A stretch of 64,000 nucleotides of DNA, taken from the NCBI GenBank assembly GCA_964372875.1, contig CAYJTB010000001.1, positions 27,860-91,859 on the forward strand. The letters are read 5' to 3'. Shown here piece after piece: positions 24,301 through 42,909 of the stretch. The DNA is from an uncultured bacterium. GTDB lineage: Bacteria; Omnitrophota; Omnitrophia; Omnitrophales; JACQLI01. How positions within the stretch are numbered: position 1 is the stretch's first letter; each line of letters starts with the position of its first letter. A model generated the notes under the pieces. That model was given only the letters and a program-made list of their open reading frames with translations, did no database searches and had not been told where the DNA came from. The position numbers and the translations under genes are program-made.

Positions 24301-27300
24301 CAAGCCCTTGCCGAAAGACAGGCAAAAGGTCTTTCCAGTGATCCAAAATCCCTTCAAAGGCATTTAGCCGAAGGCGGCAACCCTACTTTGCTCACCTTCA
24401 TTTATCGATGGAATCAAAAGCACCCGGAAGAACCCATTGAAATGAAATTGTTGCCTACCCGAACCCACAAGTACGAATCCAAAGGAGAAATTATTGAAGC
24501 GCTGGAAAAAAGGCGGCTGGAAAAAGGAGAATCAGCCAATTATCGAATGCAATTACGCCTTCATATAGAAGAAGGCGGCGATCGTACATTGTATCAAGCG
24601 GTTCTGCGTTGGAATCATGATCATCCAGAGGATTTGATCAATCTTCCTTTGGATCCCCATGTGGCGCATGGTCAATTGGGAAAATACCAGACCAAACAAG
24701 ACGGCTTGAATACTTTGAGTGAAAGGAAAAAACAAGGTCTGGGAAATTCAACCAGCGATCTCAGGCAAACTAAATCGGATGGGGGGGATTGGCCTCTTCT
24801 TGTTTTTATTCGCCATTGGAATAAGAAGCATCCGAAGGATCGCATTGCGCTGGAGAATGCTGACCAAAACTTCAACCGCCTGAGTCCTGTTGCGGTCTGG
24901 CATTCCCAGACGCAGGATTTCAAGACGACCGATCAAAAAAGAACCGAATGGTGGCGGGCCTTGCAGGAAGAGGCGGATCACGAAGCTGGAAAAAGGCTGG
25001 TCGAGTCTTTTATTCCTTCAGTCAATGAGATTGCCCAAAGGTTAAGCGGGGGGAGAGATTCGCATTATGAAGCGGATTTAATCCAAAACGGAAATATGAT
25101 TGTCCTTGAGACGATCTATCCCGAGCGTAAAGAAGACCAGTGGAATCCGAGCCGCGGGGTTTCCATGACCGAATTTGTCGAGACCCGTTTAAAGAAAGAG
25201 ATGAGGCACCGGACATTGCAAGAGATACGTTCCAGCGGGAGATTTTCCATCGACGAGCCCTACCGTTTTTCCAAAGGCAGAGAAAAGGAATGGCAGGTTC
25301 CCAGTTATGACGCCCAACCGCAGGAAGTCCGAATTAACAACTTGGCTGATGAGAGGGACAAGCAATCGGGCCTTCCCGTGATTTTGTTTGAGGAAAAACA
25401 TCAAATCGCCCGCGAGATCGGAAAATGGTTAATCAAAAAAGGTTTTCTTAAACAGGTCAAGCAGGAAGGGATTCAGAACCTTGCCGTTTCAATGATCGGA
25501 AGCCTGGGAGTGCTCGGATCGGCAGTCAGAGATAAAAGCGATCTTAATTTGATGGTTGTTACCGACGCAAATGAGTCGCAGGCTGAAGCCCTCGCAGAAA
25601 AACTTGCGCAGTGGATCGGGGGCCGATATCACGAGCCGCAGGATTCGGAGCCTATCCGCATCTCCGTAGGAAAAGAAGGTGATTATGAGCAAGCCATAGC
25701 AGACGGAAACGGCTTCATTAGCTTACTTCAAAAACACAAGGTGGGCACAGACCCCATCAAAGGAATTGCAAGCGTTGAAGTGATTGGAATTCCCGACGAA
25801 GACAACTCGTTTTCCGAAGACTCTCTTACCCGGCAAAAAACGCGGGCGGCTTTTCACCTGGCCTTCCAAGATCCCCGGTTAGCCGAGCAGGCAATCAATG
25901 GGATCCTTGTCCTTGAAAATGCCAAGGGGGCCGCAGAGCGTCTTGCCCAAAAATTGCCGAGCGATCAGGAAAACCTTTTCGGTTATTATGAAAAATTTCT
26001 TGCCAAACAAGCCGCCAATCTTCGCAAGTTGCAGGAATCTTCCATTGACTCAAAAGCAAGGGCCGAGGTGCACCCGAATCCGACCGATTCGGGTACTCCT
26101 CAGTCCTCGCCCGATCAGGCGAGGGCCGAGGTGCGTTCTTCTTTGCCGGAGCAACGGGCGGAAAAGAAGTTAGAAACAAGAAAGTTGGAAATTGGAGCAG
26201 GAATCAGCGGGCTTAGCGGCCGCGTTGAAACATCTAATGGGCGTGTTTTTTCCGGAAGTGATCGATTGCCAATAAAGTCAACGAGATCGCCGCAAAAATC
26301 AGAATGGCAAGGACAGCCGTCATTTAGTCTTCCTCCTTTGAGGAGCTTGCCGCAAAAATCAAGCCCAAATAAAAGCATATCACGAGTCCTCCTAGAACGA
26401 CAAGCCGCCATTTCAGGGAGAGTTTTAGGAAAAGCTCTCCTCCCAGAACTCCTGCTAATAGGACCAAAATCACATGCTGAAACAACTTTGCCAGCCAGTC
26501 CCTCCGGGCCGTTGTCAGGAATATACTTTTCACAAAATAAAATATATAGCAATATCAATTCAGAGTTAAGCGATTTTTCCCGCTCCGATGGTTCGACAAG
26601 CTCACCATCGGTCCTGAGCAAGGCCGAAGGCCGCGTCGAACGCGCCGAGGTGCACCCGAATCCGACCGATTCGGGTACTCCTCCGCACTCACGCCCAACC
26701 GGCGTGAGTACTGAGGTGTCCCTGGCGGCGCCGCCAGGGGCTCCTCCGTCCTCGCCTGAACGGGCGAGGGCCGAGGTGCGGGCAAGCGTTGAAGAAATAA
26801 TCAGGAAGCAGATGCTTTCTGGAGATCTGAAGGCCTTTGAAAAGAATTTCGAATCTTACGACCGTGAAAAGGCCTTTGAACTTTTAAATAGCATTTCGAA
26901 AATTGCCAAGGAAATTTCAGAAAGGATCCGCAAAGGAGAAGAAGAACTGATGGTAGCTGCAAACAATGGCCAAAAAATGCAAGAAATCATTGACGCGGCT
27001 AAAATCTTGGAAAATTTCCCAAATGATAAACAAATACATGGTGTCCACCTATCAGCTATTATAAATTTACAGGAAATCTTCAATCTTACACCAAAAGCAT
27101 TGCCAAGATATCGCAATCTCTTAGAAGCTATTGTTAAACACGCGTCAAAAAAAGAACAACCTCACCAGGCAGCAGCTGAAATTATCGAGAGCTTTGAAGG
27201 AGAACAGCACGCTGATTCCCAACAAGATCAATTTCAAAGGAACGAAGCACTGGAATTTTTAACCCTAGATCTGGATGAAAAAGTTTTTAAAGAAACAGTA

Positions 27301-28719
27301 ATAAAAAATCATTTTCTGACCGCGCTTCATCATTTCATTTGGGAACACAGCGACTTTGAAGATGCGAAGAATTTAGCCAGAGAACTCGGTAACTTGAGCC
27401 TAATCAGTTCTTTGTTGGGTGAGCCCCTCAGTAAAAGACAGGCCGCTTTTTATAAGCGCGCACTTTTGAGCTCTGACCGCACGCAGCAGAAGATCGCGCT
27501 TGGCTTCTTCGAGACTTTCCCTGATCTTGAAAAAATGGACTGGAAAGAGGAAGTCGTTGGTAAACTTAAAGAAATCGTAATGGATGAATCCGAAGATTCT
27601 GAATTTAGAAAATATGCCTTTGAAGCGTTGACAAACAATATTCTTCTTATAGAGCCAGCCTTTTTGGCGCCTTATTTTAAAGAGCCGCGCAGCCAACGGT
27701 TTCGAATCATTTCTTCGGATAAAAAAGGCGCTCGGATTTTATTTTCGGTTCTTCAGAAGAAATTTGGGTCGCCTTTAAAGGACCCGCCCCTTTTTAAAAA
27801 AAGTTCCGAGTCCATCATTTTATCAGGAGAATTTACGACAGGTCTGAGAAATGCTGCCATGTTGATCCGATTTGTAAGGCAGGCCTACGGCCGGGAGATA
27901 TCCTTTGATGAGTCCCGCGGCTTGCTTAAAGAGATGAAAAAGAAACAAGACAGATCCCGGCGTTCCGAAATACGGAGTGAAAGCTTGGATTCGACGTGGG
28001 AGTTGAGGGAGGATGCGAACAAAGGAAAGCTTGCGGAACTTGGAAAACAATTTGCGCCGATGATTGAGAGTCTTTGGAAACGCTCCGAGGTCAGGCACAG
28101 GCTTGCGACGGACGGATTTTTGAATCTTTCAAAGCTGATTGAAATTCCCAAAGCCGAAGCGGCTGAACCTGCGATTGTAGCTGCGCTTTTGATCCGTGCA
28201 GAACAATCCCAAACCGGAACGCCGGCTTTGGACAAACATTTGCAAGTGTGGCAGTCGCGCATGGGAATCAGTTCGGTTGCTAAAGAAAATGAAGTCGTAA
28301 TCCTCTTAGAAGGTGCGGCGTTTAAACTCGGACTCTTGGCTGCGATCGACGGAATTAGCCCGGCAGCTCCGAAGATCGGCGTTGTGGCGCCCAAGGCTTA
28401 CCATTCTTTAGTGGAAGAAGTCAGAAGCGGTCTTAGAACCGGGCAAGAACTGATCGAAGGGGAGAAGCTTCCCGAAATTTTAAATCAAATTGCTCAGATG
28501 AAACAGAAGCCAAGCCGCTTAACGATTTGGGCTTCGAAGGAAGACTCGTTCTTAACAGCAGCGTTCATCAAACGTTTTCTTAAAGATCCAAACCTGAATG
28601 TAGAAGTAAAGACCGTGACGCAGCGCGATCTTGACCGCGCCAACGCGTCTCACCCCGGCTTTGCGGAACGTATCAAGAACTTCCTCGCCGCCGTCAAATC
28701 CCTCAGCATTTCCGCTTAA
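15316..28719 (+). CDS. giant modular ORF, 4,467 codons, function unknown
   Basis: Single uninterrupted frame; AGGAAAG RBS; N-terminal TM helix; protein-like composition in most modules; junction peptide conserved with synonymous codon variation. Caveat: three segments look non-coding on this strand. Confidence 0.7.
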   Translation: MTLRAKNFYLRTVAAFTAIIFCWNSLAWPLPEVAVPQAGKTFDLIPKELGTVDEYELPDASHSAPFVIHIQDLHAAPEAQEKILDILKFLHSKKKLLVAVEGAAGTLHPEYLDFFPQYPRVTNALVQDLVSESMLTGPALFAWERYESKPSLHPSLRGRKSEAISNPRLLRRAFGPPHNDNSVQFIGVETPRLYRENLKAYRDFFQDEEKNQQDLKSFQTSLESAQTKIFNPDLRKFVQEVQRRKDGKFQSGKASPDLAAYIRFLADSSRDHLGVDLRDKFEQIRFPNLTRILFLMEFESKITAHQRRVLHSEIESKKLFDEITLLETRLRQILVKKPEETKLLEILDDFKLLEKLFHLELTREEYYQVVNRVLEINPSNLHQRLATIAEIASTSSEMLSRNDADYETALRFYRLAIRRDKALLENALREAAKTENSSQEKPLIVLVTGGFHTSGVSELLKEKKIPYAVVTPALAKTKANQDQYHKLMSGKMFAKEASSASPKNNNLVWAQILTARDRYPSLNSDEDQQKIFSHATEKSGEYFRKFYPQISEPKLQELLSRPAGFFSQISRSELQSRSQITNSAIDGRIGGKRVLPSRFPRSEVRAVEQRLEVSGQKTEGWSSKIGKIIRNGSDFGLSRVFQRSQAKNYRIPSRLEKSRGERIEISLKVFIDSRSWSPVTMIVALAERAHSSTASSSGSRQAFTFVLGLTIKAFIWINEIISSSISGVIHFLSLGFSSERRKSSSKAGDKAAMNLSSSRDSRIERQTPGKASPLTSTFTSRTTRRIPFLPGLLDQIQKLFSAERVFLSAFINFAGQRTEAFSPGLMFKTTDQGNAVTGFQLIDHALNLLNVYFHGNLRHRILSSSSNQYNLSALADQNQNISSVKPSKQSSTEPSRRAASGPESRQSPILSVDRPGGARGEVRAKEQRSEVREQRIEVISQRSEGKITSSGGDFGSVRSGTSRPRQEISKPKQETRLSRFIYPFSESLGQAIQEIRIMMATIIERTALAFNEVFQMFSLTTRAANTRLTALMIPSANKFRLLDGKRVFISMLQAPQPNTGLILSQILFLEYEISRRSEVREYISDWTVSTLETKQPVLAAAFSTDGKILAAGARNNVHLTNGDLRKWSVEFRAHRNEIAKLISFQRGNRNFFATASRIGSISLWNSNGGLIRRLEQLNPEDFQPVLGLSVSKNGDWLAATDMDVMKIYDLTGMSSPKTIPITDQSRNHFVQFSPDGTSIASTYYGEIRIEDIKTGKLRANLHHEASLKKSMDTSALAFSKGDDVAAASTDGKIRIWRWKGERQPQVLDFLSPAREASHLIFSPNGKRLAASTADQIEIWKLNGKVWRHEETIYPHLDAVTEILFSPDAKRFMAAGIWHGSGRVRIWSKETPARAEVRTDGIPTTWFRIFNRLDNLNREVWKQKDLDIIDLTNQLEKKLISLFGSQLLYGIWTWNTSVREVRFGLRSGPLSFELTANPHQEIPEREIKRGYTVTMNAMLTSAAESQHAKKWGDSEPEERGETLLEIPIAEIDRSQPVIYFGSFYFDTDKEKKETIIKQEILFLPGEERNYQIYIWHNNALEKTTLEKEGGRTYAVWRTPEAEPSLSFQYVALHDAQGKDLGEISRLILKAGNSETYRNNLQFLYGPIWRDETSSFSHGSRTSVKPSVFEDLISAAPGKRIAALLGLAIEYQYVPEGQVFSRMLLTELEKLEGLPYGRIAALREIAEMSPEEAHERFKDPYDQPSAIPAVMTLVASLAPRLLERMKNWDQEFYEELKGVLQKPDLKTLFEEGEVKFYEADHLWAASDNRSFFPGVVAFSRSKDRQIIVPIYFGNEPKDEDGKVWFKILDATSLGIENSNAATYQVYDHMLGEFYKTLHSGEKLYREGWSIGIPVVPGKLDRAGFIQKGRHVQFLEMRRTQSLTTATRIGLPENLVKTQGILTDLLREMSKLEIYFFISKTGATDRRMVPVDNVYEFFSSYAGKKGEHWNEIVSEPLQLTVSSPGFKRQTLRHALRMMQEALQLTYSFPGTLKGNDPHLSFYHDKLIEETQLLKTSDQTGKWAHVEFEIASSHFEMPDHWDQPAENSLRQRIQALREALEIPFVLMLKAPSGAKDPYHIEPVGNLHQRLPYFVLKDDFLKNPHDPRFPYFSKGAQLSFGLEAPMDSARLEQVRNILVASLEGRMSAATLKRAIEVTMHQWQREDSFFSESRSEARRVPRTLAVHPVRLAPGTPLYPDRSGPGVAVQSHWNSARSEVRTEKSERLTRSNAGELLKPRRYLKNKIYGIGRITAVEGKFGGKDPQGSVEVAFLNKHGFEETKEFSTWSLFQLPEQNPEEAFFSVTRQEIEDFKNQKRQGQAAYKEEIDKKRIAQREGRQWMEAQSPTFSLYDSPFSARAGRPLAADYRKLMQGIQDRAQGEYHLGSASIVERKILFEMLGTRLIPKTNQSETTLRINLGRRKKEFAEKLKTILDETGGLSARAVSEAEEKIMSPKDKSRALSSEWLKFRDPVTGKFATEKDIKRWIQNAIPIVERILEYEVKLLKLEKQIQIHPRPLARSEVRAAESSPTKKVAFFNLRTADDSSIVLPQRMSYLPVEQRLPDYSAWRIRVGRESGNLHAFLRDVLGPRWHWNVKGETKAYFLYKSLPKKFKQFIGKRKPPTGFDMEALGLLVVNRSDIFYIPMEETVNESVVTVLDKNDRDAINEFISHHAMIQTVPQNIRIFPPVRYESVKFGLGEDPVSSPKPGSIEVVYHPRLMVNDLGKADKEIIFETSFDLTQLRPRKKITAELEGRFYQELKSRLRNTWQIRIGNRTVEMPRAKDLPAKVQDVEEILLPGNNRKTASLHFNDAVSFYLDGILMRSNVPVPKDIHAWIFWKTRIRFNDQEISVETTEGNNVLTYRTDETGEHLRVNGEPTDNSVLQNMIRQMGSAFSILAFQMARDPEQTDYLRESGKETIDDEFDQWLGRSEVREEGQPAQNGNGHAIQKKQRGRGFRTKEEALQALAERQAKGLSSDPKSLQRHLAEGGNPTLLTFIYRWNQKHPEEPIEMKLLPTRTHKYESKGEIIEALEKRRLEKGESANYRMQLRLHIEEGGDRTLYQAVLRWNHDHPEDLINLPLDPHVAHGQLGKYQTKQDGLNTLSERKKQGLGNSTSDLRQTKSDGGDWPLLVFIRHWNKKHPKDRIALENADQNFNRLSPVAVWHSQTQDFKTTDQKRTEWWRALQEEADHEAGKRLVESFIPSVNEIAQRLSGGRDSHYEADLIQNGNMIVLETIYPERKEDQWNPSRGVSMTEFVETRLKKEMRHRTLQEIRSSGRFSIDEPYRFSKGREKEWQVPSYDAQPQEVRINNLADERDKQSGLPVILFEEKHQIAREIGKWLIKKGFLKQVKQEGIQNLAVSMIGSLGVLGSAVRDKSDLNLMVVTDANESQAEALAEKLAQWIGGRYHEPQDSEPIRISVGKEGDYEQAIADGNGFISLLQKHKVGTDPIKGIASVEVIGIPDEDNSFSEDSLTRQKTRAAFHLAFQDPRLAEQAINGILVLENAKGAAERLAQKLPSDQENLFGYYEKFLAKQAANLRKLQESSIDSKARAEVHPNPTDSGTPQSSPDQARAEVRSSLPEQRAEKKLETRKLEIGAGISGLSGRVETSNGRVFSGSDRLPIKSTRSPQKSEWQGQPSFSLPPLRSLPQKSSPNKSISRVLLERQAAISGRVLGKALLPELLLIGPKSHAETTLPASPSGPLSGIYFSQNKIYSNINSELSDFSRSDGSTSSPSVLSKAEGRVERAEVHPNPTDSGTPPHSRPTGVSTEVSLAAPPGAPPSSPERARAEVRASVEEIIRKQMLSGDLKAFEKNFESYDREKAFELLNSISKIAKEISERIRKGEEELMVAANNGQKMQEIIDAAKILENFPNDKQIHGVHLSAIINLQEIFNLTPKALPRYRNLLEAIVKHASKKEQPHQAAAEIIESFEGEQHADSQQDQFQRNEALEFLTLDLDEKVFKETVIKNHFLTALHHFIWEHSDFEDAKNLARELGNLSLISSLLGEPLSKRQAAFYKRALLSSDRTQQKIALGFFETFPDLEKMDWKEEVVGKLKEIVMDESEDSEFRKYAFEALTNNILLIEPAFLAPYFKEPRSQRFRIISSDKKGARILFSVLQKKFGSPLKDPPLFKKSSESIILSGEFTTGLRNAAMLIRFVRQAYGREISFDESRGLLKEMKKKQDRSRRSEIRSESLDSTWELREDANKGKLAELGKQFAPMIESLWKRSEVRHRLATDGFLNLSKLIEIPKAEAAEPAIVAALLIRAEQSQTGTPALDKHLQVWQSRMGISSVAKENEVVILLEGAAFKLGLLAAIDGISPAAPKIGVVAPKAYHSLVEEVRSGLRTGQELIEGEKLPEILNQIAQMKQKPSRLTIWASKEDSFLTAAFIKRFLKDPNLNVEVKTVTQRDLDRANASHPGFAERIKNFLAAVKSLSISA
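15765..15855. mobile_element. MITE-like element inserted in-frame in the giant ORF
   Basis: GTCATTGCACCC GTCATTGCGAGG...AAGCAATC..GATTGCTTCG...CCTCACAATGAC; translated SLRGRKSEAISNPRLLRRAFGPPHND. Confidence 0.6.
16475..16524. repeat. possible degenerate/short copy of the same MITE family
   Basis: CCATTGCTGAGATTGCTTCG...TCTCGCAATGAC, translated ...MLSRND; left terminus is weak. Confidence 0.3.
17059..17082. repeat. 24-bp perfect palindrome
   Basis: AATTCGGCCATC|GATGGCCGAATT, 34 nt upstream of the first RSEVR junction. Confidence 0.9.
17259..17672 (-). CDS. PIN-domain ribonuclease toxin (PIN_3/VapC-like)
   Basis: VVLDVNVLVSGL..., CRDPDDDAVLECALSAKATIIVTGDHDLL: acidic PIN residues in the canonical order; 20-nt overlap with the upstream small gene. 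Confidence 0.9.
   Translation of the reverse strand: MRRVVLDVNVLVSGLAFPGVCRSILESLEEDKFIAALSPALLEDFLRSLEKPKLKKWITPEMLEEMISLIHMKALIVKPKTKVKACRDPDDDAVLECALSAKATIIVTGDHDLLSMKTFKEISILSPRDFSKRLGIR
17653..17892 (-). CDS. putative antitoxin of the PIN toxin
   Basis: 79-aa basic protein directly upstream of and overlapping the PIN gene; strong RBS; family not recognised. Confidence 0.6.
   Translation of the reverse strand: MPKIAVEVDIQQIERMINQLKSRDRITLIRRLEHKTWGERFRSLTRKVDKSRKKHPLSRKELLNLVKQARQERYASGRS
18070..18556 (-). mobile_element. antisense cassette 2: junction, 3'-flank repeat, small membrane protein
   Basis: Same build as cassette 1; bounded by junctions at 18070 and 18541; minus-strand TTGACT -35-like box upstream of ATG 18461. 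Confidence 0.4.
18258..18461 (-). CDS. small two-TM membrane protein (paralog of 26324..26533)
   Basis: 67 aa with two hydrophobic helices. Shares MK(T/S)(L/I)F...RR..(F/L)A...LVL.A.V...SLK pattern with the other cassette protein. Confidence 0.5.
   Translation of the reverse strand: MKTLFPSKRRNLFADGIMRAVSLVLAALVVSENIWKTSLKAKAVLSIIVAIMILISWMACPRDSEKG
18556..19491 (+). other. WD40-type beta-propeller module of the giant ORF
   Basis: Repeated units such as FSTDGKILAAG, ATASRIGSISLWN, FSPDGTSIAS, ASTDGKIRIWRW, FSPNGKRLAAS..IEIWK, FSPDAKRFMAAG..RVRIWS. Confidence 0.8.
21937..22080. repeat. in-ORF array of GC-rich hairpins at a module junction (copy a)
   Basis: CGAGGCAC/GTGCCTCG; CCCGGTGC/GCACCGGG; ACCCGGACC/GGTCCGGGT; CAGAGT/ACTCTG; CCGTTC/GAACGG; flanked by RSEAR and RSEVR codons. 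Confidence 0.65.
24274..24857 (+). repeat. three tandem ~65-aa protein repeats inside the giant ORF
   Basis: GFRTKEEALQALAERQAKGL...GGNPTLLTFIYRWNQKHPEEPI / KYESKGEIIEALEKRRLEKG...GGDRTLYQAVLRWNHDHPEDLI / KYQTKQDGLNTLSERKKQGL...GGDWPLLVFIRHWNKKHPKDRI. Confidence 0.6.
25060..25230 (+). other. sigma-70 region-2-like stretch in the giant ORF
   Basis: EADLIQNGNMIVLETIYPERKEDQWNPSRGVSMTEFVETRLKKEM resembles DLIQEGNIGLMKAV..FDP.RG..FSTYA.WWIR. Confidence 0.35.
25483..25575 (+). other. nucleotidyltransferase (Pol-beta/MNT-like) motif in the giant ORF
   Basis: SMIGSLGVLGSAVRDKSDLNLMVVTD matches the G-S-x(n)-G...D-x-D minimal NTase pattern. Confidence 0.45.
26059..26136. repeat. in-ORF hairpin element (copy b)
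   Basis: AGGGCCGAGGTGCAC CCGAATC cgacc GATTCGG GTACTCCT...CCTCGCC cgatca GGCGAGG GCCGAGGTGCGT; 39 bp (26062-26100) are repeated perfectly at 26644-26682. Confidence 0.7.
26324..26533 (-). CDS. small two-TM membrane protein (paralog of 18258..18461)
   Basis: 69 aa, GTG start, two hydrophobic helices, acidic C-terminus (SSSKEED); A/T-rich TATATT box upstream on the minus strand. Confidence 0.5.
   Translation of the reverse strand: MKSIFLTTARRDWLAKLFQHVILVLLAGVLGGELFLKLSLKWRLVVLGGLVICFYLGLIFAASSSKEED
26641..26781. repeat. in-ORF hairpin element (copy c, expanded to four hairpins)
   Basis: CCCGAATC/GATTCGGG; ACTCACGCC/GGCGTGAGT; CCCTGGCGG/CCGCCAGGG; CCTCGCC/GGCGAGG. Confidence 0.7.
26782..27960 (+). 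other. alpha-helical (HEAT/ARM-like) module of the giant ORF
   Basis: Helix-rich composition with a recurrent ~40-aa helical periodicity; judged by eye only. Confidence 0.3.
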
Positions 28720-28807: not shown

Positions 28808-29017
28808 ATGACACGAGTGACAGTTTCCCCAAAATATCAAATCGTGATCCCTAAAGAAATTAGGGAAAAGTTGGATATTCGGTGCGGACAGAAGATGGCC
28901 GTCGTAACAAGAGGGGAATGGATTATGCTGGTTCCCGATCTGCCTTTGAAACATTATCGGGGGTTTTTGAAAGGTGTGAGTTCAGAGGGGGTTCGTGACC
29001 GAAGGGACCGGTTTTGA
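28808..29017 (+). CDS. vapB: AbrB/SpoVT-type antitoxin
   Basis: MTRVTVSPKYQIVIPKEIREKLDIRCGQKMAVV: looped-hinge-helix AbrB fold motif; 4-nt overlap with the PIN gene. Confidence 0.85.
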   Translation: MTRVTVSPKYQIVIPKEIREKLDIRCGQKMAVVTRGEWIMLVPDLPLKHYRGFLKGVSSEGVRDRRDRF

Positions 29018-29391
29018 CGGTCATCGATTCAAGCGGTTGGATTGAGTTTTTTAGCGAAGGTCCACTTGCCTCCCATTATGAAAAGCATTTGGGGTCTTTG
29101 TCTGAGATTGTCGTTCCTACCATTGTGCTTTATGAAGTCTACAAGAAATATAAGAGAGAAAGCGGAGAGCAAGGCGCTTTGACCGCGGTGTTTCATATGC
29201 AAAAGTGCCGGATCGTACCTTTAACAGAAGAATTGAGTTTGGAGGCGGCGGATTTAAGCCTTCAATACGGACTTGCCATGGCCGATGCGATTGTTTATGC
29301 GTCGGCACTTCAGGAAAAAGCAAAGTTAATCACCAGCGATAAAGCCTTAAAAAATCTGCCTCAAGTGGTTTACTACAGTAAATCGTCCTAA
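29014..29391 (+). CDS. vapC: PIN-domain toxin
   Basis: MTVIDSSGWIEFF..., LSLEAADLS...MADAIVYASA...LITSD: PIN acidic residues. Confidence 0.85.
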   Translation: MTVIDSSGWIEFFSEGPLASHYEKHLGSLSEIVVPTIVLYEVYKKYKRESGEQGALTAVFHMQKCRIVPLTEELSLEAADLSLQYGLAMADAIVYASALQEKAKLITSDKALKNLPQVVYYSKSS

Positions 29392-29397
29392 GATTCC

Positions 29398-30312
29398 TTG
29401 AGTTCCACGCAAATCGCCCTTCTTAAAAAATACGGTCTTGAAGTCCGTGGATTTCGCGGCCAGCATCTTTTGGTCGATCCCAACATTCAACGAAAGATCG
29501 TGGAGTTAGTCGCTCCCAAACCAGGTGAGTGGATCGTTGAGATCGGGCCGGGCCTGGGTGCGCTCACGACTGAGATTTTGGCGGACGGCGCGTCGGTCCT
29601 TGCGATTGAAAAAGACAAACGCTTCTGCGAGATCCTGGAAGGGGAGTTCGGCATCGATTACAAAGGAAAACTCCTGATCGAAAATGCGGATGTTCTCAAG
29701 ACGGATTTAAAAAAATTACTCAAATCGTCGTTACGAGCCCCAAAGAGGCGAAGCAACCTAAGCACGAAGACTGCTTCGGCGCCGCCTCGCAATGACCGGA
29801 TCAAAGTCATCTCGAACCTTCCTTACTATATAACTTCACCTGTGCTTTTCTGGCTGATCTCCAATCGTGCATCTGTGGAAAAAGCGGTTTTGATGATGCA
29901 GGCTGAAGTCGCGGACCGTTTGCTCGCCCAGCCGGGAGATAAAGATTATAGCCGGCTTACCTTGGGAGTCCGGTATTACGCCGAAGTCCACCGTGCTTTT
30001 GAAGTTTCCCGCAATTGTTTTACTCCGAGGCCCGATGTCGATTCAACGGTCGTGACGATCGATTTTCACCCGCCGTCCGCATTCCCAAAAGGAATCGACG
30101 AGGCATTTCTTTTCCATCTCATTCAAGTAGCCTTCGGTGCCCGGCGAAAAACCCTACTCAATCGTCTTACGCAAGATTCAAAAGTAGGTCGCCCTCGTTC
30201 CCAGCTCTTAGAAATTTTTCACAAGCTCGGCATCCCCGAAATGGCCCGCGCTGAAGAGCTCCTCCTCAAAGACTTCATCTCATTGACCGAATTTCTTCAA
30301 CCTAAACATTAA
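29398..30312 (+). CDS. rsmA: 16S rRNA (adenine1518/1519-N6)-dimethyltransferase, carrying an in-frame repeat insertion
   Basis: GQHLLVDPNI, VEIGPGLGALT SAM motif, SNLPYYITSP; TTG start. Confidence 0.9.
   Translation: MSSTQIALLKKYGLEVRGFRGQHLLVDPNIQRKIVELVAPKPGEWIVEIGPGLGALTTEILADGASVLAIEKDKRFCEILEGEFGIDYKGKLLIENADVLKTDLKKLLKSSLRAPKRRSNLSTKTASAPPRNDRIKVISNLPYYITSPVLFWLISNRASVEKAVLMMQAEVADRLLAQPGDKDYSRLTLGVRYYAEVHRAFEVSRNCFTPRPDVDSTVVTIDFHPPSAFPKGIDEAFLFHLIQVAFGARRKTLLNRLTQDSKVGRPRSQLLEIFHKLGIPEMARAEELLLKDFISLTEFLQPKH
29727..29796. mobile_element. MITE-like element in-frame in rsmA
   Basis: GTCGTTACGAG...GAAGCAACC..CTGCTTCGG...CCTCGCAATGAC, translated SSLRAPKRRSNLSTKTASAPPRND, placed just before the NLPY motif. 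Confidence 0.6.
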
Positions 30313-30328
30313 AATTCATTATCCGGAA

Positions 30329-30425
30329 GGACACGAGTCTCGTCGTCACTCGTAACGCCCCTGCGAGACAGTCCCCTTCTATATTGTTTCTTTTCAAGGA
30401 TCGGGGCAAGTCCCCGTGGGACGTC
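30329..30425 (+). repeat. structured intergenic repeat, copy R1 (left half of the ~180-bp unit)
   Basis: GGACACGAGTCTCGTCG.CACTCG.AACG.CCCTGCGAGACAGTCCCCTTCTATATTGTTTCTTTTCAAGGATCGGG is near-identical to the reverse complement of 32770-32847. Confidence 0.8.
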
Positions 30426-30548
30426 CTCGTTCGTGCGTCCGGCCTCGTTCTCCGCCAAAACGCGTGGCGGATCCCTGCCCACTCGGCCTTCCGAACGCGC
30501 CTCGACTGGTCCTTCCGCTGATCGTAACCTAGCAGAATCCCCAAGCCT

Positions 30549-30690
30549 GAGACGGTCCCCTTCATTAATTTTTATTTTCAAGGATCGGGACAGCCCCCTT
30601 GTGGGGCGGCGTAGCGGCCGTTACGGAAAAATCCGGAAAAGATTTTTCCGTAGGCCCACGAGTGAGGGCGACTCCTTGTCCGTTTCTATC
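30549..30690 (+). repeat. structured intergenic repeat, copy R2
   Basis: GTCCCCTTCATTAATTTTTATTTTCAAGGATCGGGACAGCCCCCTTGTGGGGCGGCG...CGGAAAAATC cggaaaa GATTTTTCCG...CCTTGTCCGTTTC; matches the reverse complements of 32488-32574 and 32671-32770. Confidence 0.8.
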
Positions 30691-30735
30691 TTGTCGCCTG
30701 AACGTTCGGCGAAGGCTGTGGGGATTCTCCCTGCG

Positions 30736-30765
30736 TTGACAATAAGAATTGCGGCATGCTACGAT
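30736..30765 (+). promoter_or_regulatory. candidate promoter immediately upstream of gatC (possibly leaderless)
   Basis: TTGACA, 18 nt spacer, TACGAT; the -10 box ends 8 nt before ATG 30773 and there is no SD. Confidence 0.3.
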
Positions 30766-30772
30766 CCTTGGC

Positions 30773-31057
30773 ATGTCGTTTGAAATCGAGCAAATTGCGG
30801 AACTTGCAAGACTCAGTCTGAAGCCTGAAGAAAAGGCCAAGTTAAAGAAGGATCTGGAATCGATCCTCGCCTATATGGCGCAGTTGAAAGCCGTTCCGAC
30901 GGACGATGTAGAGCCCACAAGTCACGTCCTTAATCTGGAAAATGTCTTCCGGGAAGATGAAATTAAGCCTTCCGATATCCGCGAAGATGTCCTCAAGTAT
31001 GCCCCTCACCGAGAAGGAAGTTTCTTCAAGGTCCCCAAGGTCATTGATCAGGAATAA
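30773..31057 (+). CDS. gatC: Asp/Glu-tRNA amidotransferase subunit C
   Basis: MSFEIEQIAELARLSLKPEEKAKLKKDLESILAYMAQL...VEPTSHV...REDE: GatC signature; ATG 30773 preferred to the track start 30749. Confidence 0.9.
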   Translation: MSFEIEQIAELARLSLKPEEKAKLKKDLESILAYMAQLKAVPTDDVEPTSHVLNLENVFREDEIKPSDIREDVLKYAPHREGSFFKVPKVIDQE

Positions 31058-32475
31058 TGTCTGATTTCAGACTCACTTTAAAAGAAGCGATCGGTTTCTC
31101 TCAAAAAAACGGGGCGGAGCCGCTTATCCAAGGTCTTTCTAAGCGGGTCCAAGACGTAGATGGAAAAATAAATGCCTATATCCGTTTTGACCCGTCAAAA
31201 ATCGAGCGGGCCAAAAATCAGGGGCTGCTCCACGGCGTTCCTATTTCTATCAAAGACAATATTTGTACGCGTGGGTGGGAGACAACATGCGCGTCAAAAA
31301 TTTTGTACGGATATACCCCTCCTTATGACGCGGCGGTGATCGAAAAATTGCGGGCTGCGGGCGCCACAATTTTTGGTAAATGCAACATGGATGAATTTGC
31401 TTTTGGCTCCTCCAATGAAACCTCGACTTTCGGTCCCGTCCACAATCCTTGGGATTTGGAAAGGGTGCCGGGCGGTTCAAGCGGCGGATCGGCGGCAAGC
31501 GTTGCGGCGGATGAGGCCTTTGCAGCGCTTGGATCTGACACCGGCGGATCGATCAGGCTTCCTGCCGCATTCTGCGGAGTTGTAGGATTCAAACCCACGT
31601 ATGGAAGAGTCTCGCGTTACGGCCTCGTCGCCTTTGGTTCAAGCTTTGACCAGATCGGTCCCATTACAAAAACCGTTGAAGACTCGGCTATCTTAATGAA
31701 TATTTTGGCGGGTTACGATGAACGCGATTCAACCTCTGCAAATATTCCGGTTCCTGATTACATCCAAGCATTAAAGCGGGGAGTTAAAGACCTAAAGATC
31801 GGAATGCCTAAAGAATTTTTTGTCAAAGGTATGGACCCGGAGATTGAAAAGGCAGTGCGCAAAGCGGGGAAAGTTTATGAAAAGATGGGTGCAACGATCA
31901 AAGAAGTAAGTCTGCCGCACACGGAGCATTCGGTCGCTGCCTATTACATTGTAGCCGTAGCTGAGGCAAGTTCCAATCTCGGCCGTTATGACGGCGTCGA
32001 ATATGGACTCCGGGCAAGTGAGAATAATTTGCGTGATATGTATTTTGAGACGCGCGATCAAGGGTTTGGCCAGGAATCGAAGCGGCGAATTCTTTTGGGC
32101 ACGTTTGTACTCTCAGCCGGTTATTACGATGCATATTATAGGAAAGGCCAAAAGGTAAGGACTTTGATCCGGCAAGATTATGAGAAGGCGTTTAAAGAAA
32201 TCGACGTTCTCTTGACTCCTGTTTCGCCGTCGCCTCCTTTTAAACTAGGCGAAAAATTAACCGATCCGCTTACGATGTATCTTTCAGATATTTTTACGAT
32301 CTCTGTGAATCTGGCAGGAGTCCCGGCCATCGTCCTTCCGTGCGGTTTCACAAAATCCAATCTTCCGATTGGAATGCAGCTTATCGCGCCGGCTTTTGCC
32401 GAAGAGACTCTCTTTCAAGCTGCATCTGGCTACGAACAGGAAACCCAATGGTTCAAACGCAAACCGAAAATTTAA
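31057..32475 (+). CDS. gatA: Asp/Glu-tRNA amidotransferase subunit A
   Basis: Amidase signature GGSSGGSAASVAA...GSDTGGSIRLPAAFCG; TAATG overlap with gatC. Confidence 0.95.
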   Translation: MSDFRLTLKEAIGFSQKNGAEPLIQGLSKRVQDVDGKINAYIRFDPSKIERAKNQGLLHGVPISIKDNICTRGWETTCASKILYGYTPPYDAAVIEKLRAAGATIFGKCNMDEFAFGSSNETSTFGPVHNPWDLERVPGGSSGGSAASVAADEAFAALGSDTGGSIRLPAAFCGVVGFKPTYGRVSRYGLVAFGSSFDQIGPITKTVEDSAILMNILAGYDERDSTSANIPVPDYIQALKRGVKDLKIGMPKEFFVKGMDPEIEKAVRKAGKVYEKMGATIKEVSLPHTEHSVAAYYIVAVAEASSNLGRYDGVEYGLRASENNLRDMYFETRDQGFGQESKRRILLGTFVLSAGYYDAYYRKGQKVRTLIRQDYEKAFKEIDVLLTPVSPSPPFKLGEKLTDPLTMYLSDIFTISVNLAGVPAIVLPCGFTKSNLPIGMQLIAPAFAEETLFQAASGYEQETQWFKRKPKI

Positions 32476-32487
32476 TGCCAAAGAGCA

Positions 32488-32574
32488 GAATCTCCGCCCC
32501 ACAAGGGGGCTGTCCCGATCCTTCAAAAGAAACATTAATGAAGGGGACCGCCTGCGTCGGACGTTCGGCCGGCG
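32488..32574 (-). repeat. structured intergenic repeat, copy R3 (inverted)
   Basis: CCGCCCCACAAGGGGGCTGTCCCGATCCTTCAAAAGAAACATTAATGAAGGGGAC is the reverse complement of the R2 core. Confidence 0.8.
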
Positions 32575-32670
32575 CATGAACGGGTGAGGAAATCAAAAGG
32601 TGATCATTCCAAATGAACGTGAACAGATAAGGAAACAGTAATAATCTGGGAAGATGCACACAGGTATGAA

Positions 32671-32847
32671 GATCGAAACGGACAAGGTGCCGGCCTCACT
32701 CGACGGGCCTTCGGAAAAATCTATTCCGGATTTTTCCGAGACGGCCCAACGCCGCCCCACAAGGGGGCTGTCCCGATCCTTGAAAAGAAACAATATAGAA
32801 GGGGACTGTCTCGCAGGGACGTTGCGAGTGGCGACGAGACTTGTGCC
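32671..32847 (-). repeat. structured intergenic repeat, copy R4 (inverted, full-length ~177 bp)
   Basis: Its reverse complement joins the R1 left half to the R2 right half, which defines the full unit. Confidence 0.8.
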
Positions 32848-32865
32848 TGCAGCGGATGGAAATTA

Positions 32866-34287
32866 ATGGAAACAGTCATTGGATTAGAAGTTCACGTTCA
32901 GCTGAAAACGAAATCGAAATTATTCTGCGGATGCCCCAACGCATTTGGCGCGGAGCCCAACCGCAATACATGTCCTGTCTGTATGGGTCTGCCGGGCTCG
33001 CTGCCGGTACTGAATCGGGAAGCCTTGCGCTTTGCGGTTAAGATCGGTCTGGCGCTTAATTGCCAAGTGGCGGACCGCCTCAAATTCGACCGGAAAAATT
33101 ATTTTTACCCTGACCTACCCAAGGCTTATCAAATTTCTCAATTCGATATGCCGGTCAATTCCACGGGCTTTCTTATGGTGGAAACTTCCAAAGATCTTAA
33201 GAAAATAGAAATCACACGCGCGCATTTGGAAGAAGATGCCGGAAAACTTTTGCACGAAGGAATCAAAGACGGAAGCCTTGTTGATTACAACCGCGCCGGT
33301 GTTCCCTTGCTCGAGATTGTTTCTGAGCCCGACCTTCGTTCGCCCGAAGATGCTTATGATTACCTCGCCACTCTCAAAGCTATCCTCCAATATCTGGAAG
33401 TAAGTGATTGCGATATGGAAAAGGGGAGTCTACGCTGCGACGCCAATATTTCCGTAAGAAAAGAAGGCGACCCGAAGCTTGGAACGAAAGTTGAAATTAA
33501 AAATATGAATTCCTTCCGCGCGGTTCAAAAAGCCGCTGAATATGAAATCAGCCGCCAAATCAAAGTGTTGGAAGAGGGCGGAAAGCTCGTGCAGGAGACG
33601 CGGCTTTGGAATGAGGCCAAAGGCCAAACCTTTTCCATGCGTTCCAAGGAATTTGCTCACGATTATCGATATTTTCCTGAGCCCGATCTTGTGCCCTTCA
33701 CGATTTCCCGCAGCGAAGTTGAAGAGGCACAAAAAACCATGCCCGAACTGCCGGTCGACCGGGCAAAACGGCTCATGCAGGAATATCAGCTCACAGAAAA
33801 AGATGCATTGAGGCTCGTGCAAGATAAAAAATTGGTGGAATATTATGAGACTTGTCTTAAAACAAAGGCCAATCCCAAACTTGTGAGTAACTGGATTTTA
33901 AGTGAACTCCTGGGTCACCTAAATCAAAAAGCTCTGGGGATTGAGGCTTCTCCAGTTTCACCCGCAGCCCTCGCCGGACTTGTGCAACTCATTGAGAACA
34001 ACACCATCAGCGGTAAGATTGCCAAAGATGTGCTTCCTGAAATGATTGAAACAGGGAAATCCGCAGAAGTGATCGTCAAAGAAAAAGGTCTCGTGCAAGT
34101 GACCGATGTGAAATTTTTGGAAGAAGCAGTCCAGCGTATTATCCAAGCCAATCCCAAATCTGTGGAGGATTACCGGTCCGGAAAAAAACAAGCCTTGGGT
34201 TTTTTGGTGGGCCAGATTATGAAAGAGACTCAAGGCAAGGCCAATCCTAAGATGGTCAATGAAATCCTGGAAAGGAAACTGTCGTGA
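32866..34287 (+). CDS. gatB: Asp/Glu-tRNA amidotransferase subunit B
   Basis: METVIGLEVHVQL.TKSKLFCGC...CPVCMGLPG.LPVLN, YFYPDLPK.YQISQ: GatB signature. Confidence 0.95.
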   Translation: METVIGLEVHVQLKTKSKLFCGCPNAFGAEPNRNTCPVCMGLPGSLPVLNREALRFAVKIGLALNCQVADRLKFDRKNYFYPDLPKAYQISQFDMPVNSTGFLMVETSKDLKKIEITRAHLEEDAGKLLHEGIKDGSLVDYNRAGVPLLEIVSEPDLRSPEDAYDYLATLKAILQYLEVSDCDMEKGSLRCDANISVRKEGDPKLGTKVEIKNMNSFRAVQKAAEYEISRQIKVLEEGGKLVQETRLWNEAKGQTFSMRSKEFAHDYRYFPEPDLVPFTISRSEVEEAQKTMPELPVDRAKRLMQEYQLTEKDALRLVQDKKLVEYYETCLKTKANPKLVSNWILSELLGHLNQKALGIEASPVSPAALAGLVQLIENNTISGKIAKDVLPEMIETGKSAEVIVKEKGLVQVTDVKFLEEAVQRIIQANPKSVEDYRSGKKQALGFLVGQIMKETQGKANPKMVNEILERKLS

Positions 34288-34297
34288 CGGGATCATT

Positions 34298-35362
34298 ATG
34301 TTAACCCTCGGCATCGAGACCTCCTGCGATGAAACCTCCTGCGCGGTTTTAAAAAATGGCGATGAGATTCTTTCCAATATTGTTTCCTCGAGCCTTGCCC
34401 AACACACACCCTTTGGGGGAGTCGTTCCCGAGATTGCGTCGCGTCACTGTCTGGAACAAATTGATTTAGTTTTTGAAACCGCGCTCGAAAAGGCCGGCGT
34501 TTCAAAAAAAGATTTGGATTTAGTCGCGGTAACCCAAGGCCCCGGGCTGGTGGGTTCGCTTCTGGTCGGACTTTCTTTTGCCAAGGCGTTGGCCTATCAG
34601 CTTAAAATCCCTTTGATTGGGGTCAATCATTTAGAAGGACATCTTGCAGCGAATTTTATTGGAAAGCCGCTTCCGAAATCTTTCATTGGTTTGATTGTCT
34701 CGGGCGGCCACACAGAACTTACTTATCACCGGAACGGCGCCATAAAAATTCTTGGATCTACGGTGGACGACGCTGTGGGTGAGGCGTATGACAAGTCAGC
34801 GAAACTTCTCGGCCTGGGTTATCCCGGCGGTCCGGTCATGGATAAGTTGGCGCAAAAGGGAAATCCCAAGGCCTTCCGGTTCACGCGGCCCAAGCAAAAA
34901 GGACGATTTGATTTTAGTTTCAGCGGAATTAAAACAGCGGTATCTGTCATTGTGAGGGCGCAAAGCGCCCGAAGCAATCTGACGCCAGTGGCGTCAGGGC
35001 TTCGTCCCGCCCCCGTTGGGGGCAGTCCTCGCAATGACCATCAGTTTGTCAACGATCTCTGCGCCAGTTTTCAGGAGACGGTAGTGCGCTGGCTTGTGGA
35101 AAAAACCATCGCCGCCTGCAGGAATAAAAAAGTAAGCGATGTGGTTGTGGGCGGGGGAGTAAGCGCCAATACAAGACTCCGTGAACTTCTTCCCCAAGAA
35201 GCCAAGCTTTATCATATCAATGTTTGGTTTCCTCCGTTTTCGCTGACCATTGATAATGCGGCAATGATCGCAAGGCGAGGCTTTGAACTTTACCAGAAAG
35301 GAAAACGAACGGATTTCAAAATTTCAGCCCGTCCCAGTTTTCCCATAGGAGAGGCAAAATGA
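34298..35362 (+). CDS. tsaD: tRNA N6-adenosine threonylcarbamoyltransferase, carrying an in-frame repeat insertion
   Basis: MLTLGIETSCDETS, GVNHLEGHL, FSFSGIKTA, GGVSAN: TsaD/Kae1 motifs; ATG 34298 preferred to the track start 34259. Confidence 0.92.
   Translation: MLTLGIETSCDETSCAVLKNGDEILSNIVSSSLAQHTPFGGVVPEIASRHCLEQIDLVFETALEKAGVSKKDLDLVAVTQGPGLVGSLLVGLSFAKALAYQLKIPLIGVNHLEGHLAANFIGKPLPKSFIGLIVSGGHTELTYHRNGAIKILGSTVDDAVGEAYDKSAKLLGLGYPGGPVMDKLAQKGNPKAFRFTRPKQKGRFDFSFSGIKTAVSVIVRAQSARSNLTPVASGLRPAPVGGSPRNDHQFVNDLCASFQETVVRWLVEKTIAACRNKKVSDVVVGGGVSANTRLRELLPQEAKLYHINVWFPPFSLTIDNAAMIARRGFELYQKGKRTDFKISARPSFPIGEAK
34946..35038. mobile_element. MITE-like element in-frame in tsaD (93 bp, 31 codons)
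   Basis: GTCATTGTGAGG...GAAGCAATC...CCTCGCAATGAC with hairpins GGGCGC/GCGCCC, TGACGCC/GGCGTCA, GCCCCC/GGGGGC; translated VIVRAQSARSNLTPVASGLRPAPVGGSPRND between FSFSGIKTA and the ..LCASFQE helix. Confidence 0.7.
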
Positions 35363-35808
35363 ATTGGTTCAGTTCCCAAGACACCCTTATGATCACAAGA
35401 CTTTTTCTTGCGACATTTCTTGCGAGCTTTATTGGGATCGAGCGGGAAATCCACGGTAAAGTAGCCGGATTTAGAACACATGCCCTAGTATCGCTGGGCT
35501 CCGCCCTCATCATGCTTGTTTCCATTGATCTTTCGGAGGCGTATCGTGGAGTGGTGGATGTGGACCCTTCAAGGATTGCGGCACAAGTCGTAAGTGGTAT
35601 CGGATTTTTGGGAGCAGGCGCTATTATCCGGTTTCGAACGGGGATCACCGGGCTCACGACAGCGGCCAGTCTGTGGGTCGCGGCCGGGGTGGGTCTTGCC
35701 TGCGGCGCCGGATTTTTCAAACCGGCTTTCGTTGCCACACTCTTCGCCCTTTTGGTTTTAGCCCTTTTTGGGACCTTAGGCAGGTGGCTTGGTTGGAAAG
35801 ACGTATGA
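35359..35808 (+). CDS. MgtC/SapB family membrane protein
   Basis: LATFLASFIGIEREIHGK.AGFRTHALVSLGSAL...AQVVSGIGFLGAGAI: MgtC N-terminal domain signature. Confidence 0.85.
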   Translation: MNWFSSQDTLMITRLFLATFLASFIGIEREIHGKVAGFRTHALVSLGSALIMLVSIDLSEAYRGVVDVDPSRIAAQVVSGIGFLGAGAIIRFRTGITGLTTAASLWVAAGVGLACGAGFFKPAFVATLFALLVLALFGTLGRWLGWKDV

Positions 35809-36692
35809 CACTCACACAAGAAACTATCGGAAAAATTTTAAAAGAGGTCGAATCGCGCAAAATTTCCAGCCAGAAGGCGTTTGGGAAATTACAAAATCTC
35901 GCTTACGAAACTTTTTCATTCGCCAGGATGGATCATCACCGTACTCTGCGCAAAGGTTTTCCGGAGGCGATCTACACACCCGGTAAAACGATTCCTCAAC
36001 TGGAAAAAATTTTCCGTTCGATCCAAAAATCAGGACAAAAGCTGATCGCGACGCGCTTGGAGGAGAGTGTTTATAAAACACTCAGGAAAAAATTCCCCGG
36101 TCTTCGCTATTCAAAGGAAGCAAGGATTGGGTATTTCTCATCCGTCATTGCGAGAAGCACCAACGGTGCGACGAAGCAATCCCGACCAGAGATTGCTTCG
36201 TCCCTTCCTACGGAAGGGACGGTTAAAGGAATCCTCTTTAGCCCTGACGCCAGTGGCAACAGGACTTCGGCTTTGTCTGGAACGCCGCCTCGCAATGACA
36301 GAGAGAAATCCATTGCGATTCTCACCGCTGGCACGAGCGATCTTCCGGTTGCGGAAGAGGCGGCCATTACGCTTGAATTAATAGGAAAGAAAGTTGTCCG
36401 GATTTATGACTGCGGTGTCGCGGGCCTGCACCGGCTTTTGGATCAAGTCTCAACATTACAAGAAGTCAAAGCCGTGATCTGCGTTGCGGGAATGGAAGGC
36501 GCACTTCCGAGTGTGGTCGCTGGCTTGATCAGTAAACCTATCATTGCAGTTCCGACCAGTGTGGGTTACGGCGCAAGCTTCAAAGGTCTTGCGGCGCTTC
36601 TTACCATGCTCAATTCCTGCGCTCAAGGTGTAGCCTGCGTCAATATTGATAACGGATTCGGCGCCGCCTGCTTTGCCGCGTCTATTGCCTAA
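35805..36692 (+). CDS. larB: LarB-like protein (PurE/AIR-carboxylase fold; pyridinium-3,5-biscarboxylic acid mononucleotide synthase family), carrying an in-frame repeat insertion
   Basis: N-terminal domain ..ARMDHHRTLRKGFPEAIY.PGKT; C-terminal IAILTAGTSDLPVAEEAA...CVAGMEGALPSVVAGL...IAVPTSVGYG; ATGA overlap with the MgtC stop sets the start at 35805. Confidence 0.75.
   Translation: MTLTQETIGKILKEVESRKISSQKAFGKLQNLAYETFSFARMDHHRTLRKGFPEAIYTPGKTIPQLEKIFRSIQKSGQKLIATRLEESVYKTLRKKFPGLRYSKEARIGYFSSVIARSTNGATKQSRPEIASSLPTEGTVKGILFSPDASGNRTSALSGTPPRNDREKSIAILTAGTSDLPVAEEAAITLELIGKKVVRIYDCGVAGLHRLLDQVSTLQEVKAVICVAGMEGALPSVVAGLISKPIIAVPTSVGYGASFKGLAALLTMLNSCAQGVACVNIDNGFGAACFAASIA
36144..36299. mobile_element. 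MITE-like element(s) in-frame in larB (156 bp, 52 codons; possibly two fused units)
   Basis: GTCATTGCGAGA...CGAAGCAATC ccgaccaga GATTGCTTCG, TCCCTTCC/GGAAGGGA ... CCTCGCAATGAC; lies in the linker between the two LarB domains. Confidence 0.7.
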
Positions 36693-41422: not shown

Positions 41423-41461
41423 GTCATTGCTTCGCCCGCTTAAACGCGGGCTCGTCATGAC
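41423..41461. repeat. mini palindromic element related to the MITE termini
   Basis: GTCATTGC ttc GCCCGC ttaaac GCGGGC tc GTCATGAC, just after the hisG stop. Confidence 0.4.
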
Positions 41462-41581: not shown

Positions 41582-41587
41582 ATAGTT

Positions 41588-42874: not shown

Positions 42875-42909
42875 TTTTGGTTTGTCATTTCAAACCCGAA
42901 TCAAAATTT

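Follow-up and report, generated by a model that had tools for sequence, protein, structure and literature searches.

Here, a family of palindromic repeats lying inside protein-coding genes was analyzed in a stretch of 64,000 nucleotides from an uncultured bacterium of the phylum Omnitrophota (assembly GCA_964372875.1, contig CAYJTB010000001.1, positions 27,860 to 91,859 of the forward strand), referred to below in its whole length as the window. Four genes carry the repeat, namely a giant open reading frame (ORF) at 15316-28719, rsmA (29398-30312), tsaD (34298-35362) and larB (35805-36692), and these belong to the gene order giant ORF, rsmA, gatCAB, tsaD, mgtC, larB and larC. The three named products were identified by Pfam and NCBIfam profile searches as RsmA (TIGR00755 at 2e-69), TsaD (TIGR03723 at 8e-117) and LarB (NF033503 at 2e-80). 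In these three genes the repeat-derived segments are in-frame insertions and not ancestral loops. [quoted passage not shown] The word “essential” was an overstatement, since among the three it usually applies to tsaD but to neither rsmA nor larB.

The repeat was delimited by two sequence boxes. With at most one mismatch allowed, the terminus GTCATTGCGAG is matched 8 times in the window, compared with 0.82 expected, and the inner box CGAAGCAATC is matched 19 times, compared with 7.1 expected; none of 100 shuffles reached either count. Motif counts so far above those of the shuffles confirm that palindromic copies are present in the giant ORF, rsmA, tsaD and larB, as had been reported. When a unit was defined as both boxes lying no more than 45 nt apart, 8 units were obtained in the window, 7 of which are located within these four genes. 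The unit consists of the head (C/T)GTCATTGCGAG, a variable small hairpin and the box CGAAGCAATC, and can be read as the tag (C/T)GTC followed by ATTGC, GAG(ga), the variable apical hairpin, (ga)CGAA, GCAAT and C, with a G/A-rich internal loop (GAG...CGAA) surrounding the apical hairpin. The context of the tag is CCGTC in the giant ORF and in larB, TCGTC in rsmA and CTGTC in tsaD, and the bases after GCAAT are CTC, CTG or CCC. Two inverted units make up an element of 70-160 bp, which folds as a single branched hairpin. Three dimers, one composite and two solo units are observed in the window.

Within the giant ORF, an inverted dimer is located at 15777-15855, formed by a left unit on the plus strand (15777-15807) and a right unit on the minus strand (15818-15855), and translated in silico as PSLRGRKSEAISNPRLLRRAFGPPHND. 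This copy had been placed at 15765-15855, and it is real, but the earlier start takes in a partial, 12-nt duplicate of the element head on the plus strand (CCGTCATTGCAC, 15765-15776) that adjoins the dimer on its 5' side. A solo decayed unit on the minus strand of the same ORF (16485-16524), reading EIASTSSEMLSRND, was absent from the first-pass annotation. The decayed dimer in rsmA comprises two units at 29727-29796, reads SSLRAPKRRSNLSTKTASAPPRND and lies six residues ahead of the NLPY motif. The dimer in tsaD occupies 93 bp (34946-35038) and reads VIVRAQSARSNLTPVASGLRPAPVGGSPRND, with the central hairpin CTGACGCCAGTGGCGTCAG; its left unit lies at 34946-34979, and its right half, with a decayed inner box, fails the two-box search. 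The element in larB is a composite of 156 bp (36144-36299), in which a left unit (36144-36181) and a truncated inverted unit (about 36191-36220) are followed by a second, partial element that consists of a tsaD-type central module (36244-36257) and a right terminus (36289-36299). One exact 14-mer module is common to the tsaD and larB copies, with a chance expectation of 0.18. The single intergenic unit is located just after hisG on the minus strand (41425-41461), in the collapsed form GTCATGACGAG-hairpin-CGAAGCAATGAC. It is indeed a variant of the same family, as proposed for 41423-41461, whereas the other proposed variant, at 11745-11877 with convergent genes on both sides, belongs to a different family (GTCATCCTGAA...CTCAGAATGAC; fold z = -3.1). 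The boxes of the latter (GTCATCCTGA...TCAGAATGAC) differ from those of the main repeat, while the layout of head and tail is alike.

Folding energies were compared with those of shuffled sequence. Strong folding was obtained for the giant-ORF dimer (z = -7.6; -23.2 kcal/mol as single-stranded DNA), the tsaD dimer (z = -7.0; -33.7 kcal/mol) and the larB composite (z = -7.1; -76.7 kcal/mol as RNA), and the intergenic unit reached z = -2.6. The rsmA copy (z = -1.1) and the solo unit of the giant ORF (z = +0.6) do not fold strongly in comparison with shuffles. At Rfam gathering thresholds, the only match in the whole window is a tRNA-Gln, and the elements match no RNA family. A reading of the segments as introns or inteins was rejected, given their size of 70-156 bp and the lack of both Rfam intron matches and intein motifs.

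The origin of the three segments was examined by comparison with orthologues, solved structures and models. Six genomes make up the syntenic set; in L206 the giant ORF was not found at this position, and L207 was compared without its upstream region. Syntenic orthologues at 75-80% identity are devoid of the segments, and two genomes, L003 and L205, have none in rsmA, tsaD or larB. In L001, a hybrid insert in rsmA has kept its ...TGCAATGAC end, tsaD contains an insert of the same family at the same site, and larB contains none. L206 displays a possible remnant in rsmA (SSLR...) and a remnant in tsaD (VIAS...PRND), with none in larB. In L207, tsaD carries a collapsed solo unit and larB a full dimer, the rsmA site not being covered. 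No counterpart of the segments is present in the structures of B. subtilis KsgA (6ifs) for rsmA, T. maritima TsaD (6nak) for tsaD or L. plantarum LarB (7mj0) for larB. In the AlphaFold model of TsaD, with a mean predicted local distance difference test score (pLDDT) of 93, the insert is a coil at residues 226-247, and blocks 231-240 and 241-250 have pLDDT values of 55 and 69. In the model of LarB, with a mean of 81.5, residues 112-163 form a coil at a pLDDT of about 50 between two confident domains. Because the orthologues and the solved structures are without the segments, and the AlphaFold models depict them as low-confidence coil, the segments in rsmA, tsaD and larB are insertions. Their positions agree well with the earlier prediction of a loop before NLPY in RsmA, the stretch that joins FSFSGIKTA to the following helix of TsaD and the interdomain linker in LarB, as judged from the structures and, for TsaD and LarB, from the models, in which the inserts lie outside the confident folds. 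Furthermore, all alignment-invariant columns are retained in the window proteins, so that rsmA, tsaD and larB look functional, and the tsaD insert is present in independent JGI and ENA assemblies.

A wider comparison demonstrates how unevenly such segments are distributed. Among 120 TsaD and 120 LarB homologues the loop lengths vary, and the diagnostic peptides of the family are patchy in both sets: VIARS..TKQS..EIAS..PRND, SLRG..RRSN..LLR..RND and, rarely, RHCE..DCF..LAMT appear amid insert-free homologues. By the names of LarB homologues, the window belongs to Candidatus Omnitrophota. A neighbour-joining tree of 119 TsaD sequences, built without the loop, requires no fewer than 13 gains or losses, a rough number from a noisy tree. 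A remnant, SLRGND, is visible in homologue P0129. In addition, the same TsaD and LarB loops of relatives hold at least four other repeat-derived peptide families, namely VGAxL...APT, LTPTLSP...GERVRVRG, RHSE...(F)AQDD and VIPAEAGIQ...FGND, the last resembling the canonical NTS repeats of Neisseria; such peptides were seen in homologues P0007, P0011, P0019, P0026, P0033, P0052, P0131 and P0142, among others. The VGAxL...APT loop peptides resemble the GTAG class of repetitive extragenic palindromic (REP) sequences (PMC3733652). The presence of several repeat families in the same loops therefore indicates tolerance at these sites and not targeting by one element.

In L207, a related Omnitrophota contig (GCA_974707675.1), 10 units occur within 14.9 kb, of which several lie in coding sequence or overlap it, and two units of 52 nt at separate loci (5795-5846 and 7915-7966) are identical. 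These identical units, together with the 14-mer common to tsaD and larB, show a common descent of copies within genomes and speak for recent copying. Further unit loci of L207 lie at 9853-9913 and 12515-12577. In this contig the Zip and GHMP kinase genes have copies directly at their starts, and the products of both genes exceed their orthologues by 30-35 residues.

With regard to the reading frame, all 5 intragenic right termini are read as (R/H)-N-D, as previously claimed. All three frames are open in the left half of the element, and two in the right half, namely ...ARND and ...LAMT. The third frame of the right half gives TGA, the stop codon noted before, and some relatives make use of L-A-M-T. 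Frame use in relatives amounts to 19 for RND and 2 for LAMT, counts which represent non-independent events. The RND frame is preferred without being obligatory, and the bias is consistent with a preference for the more hydrophilic reading. The predicted inserted peptides are mostly hydrophilic, with the succession ...SLRG or VIAR..., KQS or RSN, IAS or LLR and ...RND; SNLTPVASGLRPAPVGGSPR is an example.

The distribution of the repeat was scanned in one genome per species, and at least 120 stretches holding it were found. Exact units are present, among the matches listed, in several Bradyrhizobium species, Sphingomonas, Rhodospirillales, a Rickettsiales metagenome-assembled genome and Gammaproteobacteria, and also in Chloroflexota, Patescibacteria, Zixibacteria, Bacteroidota, Cyanobacteria, Planctomycetota, Desulfobacterota, Helicobacter rodentium and Sporomusa. 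Since more than 10 phyla are represented, the family is neither new nor lineage-specific. A literature search by sequence string yielded primer coincidences only. Across 446 units, T or C precedes GTC in 402 (90%), and GCAAT is followed by a tail made of C and two variable bases, with CCAG in the commonest class. Apical self-complementarity was evaluated by a simple stem count against shuffles, since apical segments range between 5 and 45 nt in length; an apical stem of at least 5 is present in 25% of the units compared with 5% of shuffles. The loci compared include 151 dimers of 73-195 bp, flanked as YY/GTCAT...ATGAC/RR. Extension of the palindrome into the flanks is weakly above control (1.1 versus 0.6 nt), owing to this YY/RR preference. 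The window differs from other genomes in its intragenic share, which is 7 of 8 units versus no more than 13% within long open frames elsewhere. In other phyla (L006, L011, L067, L081, L095, L102), unit arrays and nested copies are observed, and some dimers have long, structured spacers that reach 195 bp. GCGAAGC, a very stable DNA mini-hairpin, is contained in the commonest short unit.

All-against-all clustering of the ORFs in the loci holding the repeat, at least 120 in number, revealed no recurrent transposase; the only recurrent clusters were ABC transporters, short-chain dehydrogenases, histidine kinases and EF-Tu/EF-G. A profile search detected a different partner. In L065, a Planctomycetota contig, an ORF of 96 amino acids encoding a putative GIY-YIG nuclease is exactly bracketed by a left unit and by an inverted right unit, and only PF01541 matches its product (6e-18). 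Comparison of this protein with metagenome contigs returned 474 relatives. Among the best 80 of these 474, a unit is located upstream within 150 nt in 67, an inverted unit is located downstream in 67, and both are present in 55, some contigs ending before a flank could show. At least 7,985 relatives of 95-99 amino acids occur in many phyla. NCBIfam has no family for these GIY-YIG proteins, and the best PDB match of the L065-type protein is weak, to the UPF0213 protein 1zg2. Because 55 of the 80 loci hold the 96-residue gene between inverted units, the window copies are most readily seen, on comparative sequence grounds, as gene-less derivatives of a repeat-GIY-YIG-repeat element. A GIY-YIG subfamily other than the L065 type was encountered in L001, where two identical tandem ORFs of 104 amino acids (16305-17077) lie just upstream of an intact tRNA-Gln(ttg), each with a copy of the tRNA's 5' part in front of it; at the orthologous place in the window (42909-42981), only the intact tRNA is present. 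The arrangement resembles a small GIY-YIG element able to duplicate the 5' half of the tRNA.

The closest published counterparts are the CGTC-tagged REPs of Di Nocera et al. 2013, in which CGTC-1 and CGTC-4 are equated with the Rickettsia palindromic elements (RPEs) RPE-6 and RPE-4 (PMC3733652), and which also include the Neisseria dRS3/NTS repeats (PMC3733652, PMC11893778). These REPs have no dedicated transposase, and their dimers are known in-frame within genes of Rickettsia and other species, with peptides such as SFLRKQES...DSRFRGND and VIPAKAGI...IPAFAGMT in the table of intragenic copies (PMC3733652, citing Ogata et al. 2000 for the Rickettsia elements). Like them, the units studied here have a 5' CGTC/TGTC tag (402 of 446 units), a stem that starts with AT (ATTGC...GCAAT in all units), a short pyrimidine-rich tail after the stem (consensus CCA) and a mostly inverted, dimeric arrangement with variable spacers. 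In both cases copies in housekeeping genes contribute about 20-50 residues ending in ...ND or ...AMT, and the head and tail of the peptides are alike (DSRFRGND in Rickettsia, PRND here). The stem of the CGTC-tagged REPs is 8-9 bp with a loop of 4-5 nt, whereas only 5 Watson-Crick pairs are formed here, followed by GAG/CGAA purine-rich mismatches around 5-45 nt. The host also differs, being an Omnitrophota bacterium with 7 of the 8 window units intragenic.

A second counterpart is the Ssn family, which comprises GIY-YIG nucleases of a single domain. These enzymes bind the NTS hairpin of Neisseria, CGTCATTCCCGCGMAVGCGGGAATCYRG, in single-stranded DNA, and cut immediately upstream of it on one strand only; repeats usually flank their genes (Chenal et al. 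2025, PMC11893778). The present system resembles Ssn in the small single-domain GIY-YIG gene (about 100 residues; 96 here) between inverted hairpin repeats, in the CGTCAT head and ...AATC-YNB tail of the repeat, and in the hundreds of gene-less repeats scattered in genomes of many phyla. It differs in that only 2% of NTS are intragenic in N. meningitidis (PMC11893778) versus most units of the window, and in that the partner protein here is a putative nuclease recognized from its sequence.

Turning to RPE-1 (Ogata et al. 2000, 2002, cited in PMC10969869), this element is similar in its palindrome of about 100-150 bp, its in-frame position in unrelated genes and its fold-compatible sites; judged by its description, it differs by an unrelated sequence, and RPE-1 is not known to have a GIY-YIG partner. 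REP doublets forming hairpins (REPINs) and their REP-associated tyrosine transposases (RAYTs), attributed to Bertels and Rainey 2011 in PMC3733652, share the inverted doublet of a tagged hairpin as the replicating unit and the lack of target-site duplication, and differ by a GTAG tag and a Y1 tyrosine transposase versus CGTC/TGTC and GIY-YIG here. The parallel with the Rickettsia elements drawn in the first-pass annotation is well founded in respect of in-frame, fold-compatible insertions in unrelated genes. Its further statement that the family differs from the RPEs applies to RPE-1, and does not extend to RPE-4 and RPE-6, with which the CGTC/TGTC tag, the AT stem, the dimer and the ...AATGAC/-ND end are shared. 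The window thus repeats what is seen in Rickettsia, but the phylum is another one and so is the repeat class.

Our results probably reflect gene-less hairpin repeats of a GIY-YIG-carrying element, of which the copies that survive within genes are in-frame and confined to permissive loops. The full-length form would carry the 96-residue GIY-YIG gene in the spacer between two inverted units. In the Omnitrophota lineage of the window, copies would have landed in protein genes, and the survivors would be those that kept the frame, avoided the TGA frame and lay in a permissive surface loop or linker, with selection presumably removing insertions that break the frame or the fold. Such survivors would be read as disordered, mostly hydrophilic peptides, probably without a function of their own. 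As for the spread of copies, we infer that a GIY-YIG nuclease acts in trans on single-stranded hairpins. Decay would proceed by substitutions and by internal deletions from one repeated ATTGC/GCAAT box to another, giving collapsed solo hairpins, such as 41425-41461 in the window and the unit in tsaD of L207, and finally remnants of the SLRGND kind.

Several points weigh against this explanation. A profile search found no GIY-YIG gene within the 64-kb window. The closest PDB match of the partner protein is only UPF0213, at 3.6e-4, and its membership of the Ssn clade (cd10448) is putative. The repeat family fails the published Ssn-related motif, HGTCWYN(0-2)YYVSBRHN(0-5)WNVSBRGN(0-2)RNCYNB, which has 0 matches in the window and which canonical NTS passes and the consensus units fail. 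The Ssn enzymes, moreover, have been shown to cut DNA and not to transpose it. The giant-ORF copies are presumed insertions on account of family membership, the orthologue comparison covering the other three genes. Finally, insertions in the same loops of relatives could partly represent one old insertion followed by divergence and not repeated hits.

Other origins of the copies were weighed against the same observations. A classical MITE, derived by deletion from an insertion sequence and mobilized by a DDE transposase that recognizes its 11-bp terminal inverted repeats, would account for the inverted termini GTCATTGCGAG / CTCGCAATGAC, for the small size and for the high copy number. The MITE-like designation given initially does not hold, as direct repeats of 2-5 nt, the mark of target-site duplication, are at chance level in the 151 dimers, no transposase family recurs in the loci compared, and the gene found between the arms encodes a GIY-YIG nuclease; this origin is very unlikely. 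A doublet of REPIN type, moved by a RAYT or an IS200/IS605 Y1 transposase acting on single-stranded hairpins, fits the unpaired conserved 5' tag, the inverted dimer and the lack of target-site duplication, all as described in PMC3733652. In at least 120 loci, the surroundings of the units show no recurrent Y1 transposase ORF, CGTC-tagged REPs are stated to be without a dedicated transposase (PMC3733652), and the recurrent neighbour is GIY-YIG, which makes mobilization by a Y1 enzyme quite improbable. The notion that no insertion took place, and that the segments are variable loops of ancestral origin, low-complexity sequence arisen by chance or artefacts of assembly, draws on the variable loop length in many lineages, and is hardly credible in view of the same nucleotide motifs in four unrelated genes, far above chance, of the orthologues and structures without the segments, and of the recovery of the tsaD insert in independent assemblies.

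It should also be considered whether the intragenic copies are kept for a function, as nuclease sites that limit allele replacement by transformation, as mRNA hairpins that pace interdomain translation, or through roles of the peptides. Copies persist in orthologues at 65-78% identity, RND prevails over the other open frame, the larB mRNA structure is very stable, and the NTS/Ssn pair of Neisseria modulates transformation (PMC11893778), all of which speaks for a function. Close relatives, in contrast, are without the segments altogether, the loops hold at least four unrelated repeat families, indicating tolerance rather than a specific role, copies decay and collapse (rsmA, z = -1.1; SLRGND in P0129), and the frame counts represent non-independent events. 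Retention for function is therefore unlikely, and we favor gene-less hairpin repeats that persist where the protein tolerates them.

Some neighbouring features of the window may be mentioned. The giant ORF (4467 amino acids) has a WD40 region at residues 1064-1376 and contains dense short inverted repeats at 21800-22120 and 26056-26753, which are probably internal coding repeats. The interval that separates the giant ORF from rsmA contains a PIN-domain ORF (29014-29391); in relatives, this place is taken by small ORFs of antitoxin-like type. A very basic ORF of 32 amino acids (MPWPKKQRKRKMNKHKRKKKLRRHRHKKKSWS, 41484-41582), flanked by hisG and the GHMP kinase gene, has no Pfam match; a 32-residue gene is called at the matching place in L206, and the product presumably resembles the tiny ribosomal proteins of bS22 type.

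In-frame insertion of hairpin repeats is already known from Rickettsia, and current understanding is not overturned by the present case. What is new is the host phylum, the high intragenic share and the occupation of the same protein loops by several repeat families in relatives. A broader idea may be offered tentatively, and we consider it doubtful at this stage: the repeat-GIY-YIG-repeat arrangement may be an unrecognized autonomous mobile element, in which a tiny single-strand nuclease would spread its own hairpin ends and the gene-less dimers across more than 10 phyla, and of which in-frame palindromic elements, the present Omnitrophota copies and some Rickettsia RPEs included, would be the footprints, with surface loops of housekeeping enzymes as the main safe harbour in compact genomes. 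If the explanation favored here is true, a putative GIY-YIG nuclease of Ssn type would become the candidate enzyme for in-frame palindromic insertions, which have been known mainly from Rickettsia since 2000. The published Ssn-related motif would then miss at least one large cross-phylum repeat class, a point of relevance to the mining of tools for single-stranded DNA. In-frame palindromic insertion would extend to a candidate phylum that is free-living or episymbiotic, and the variation in length of TsaD, LarB and RsmA in uncultured bacteria would often be derived from repeats, so that annotation should not take it for functional divergence.

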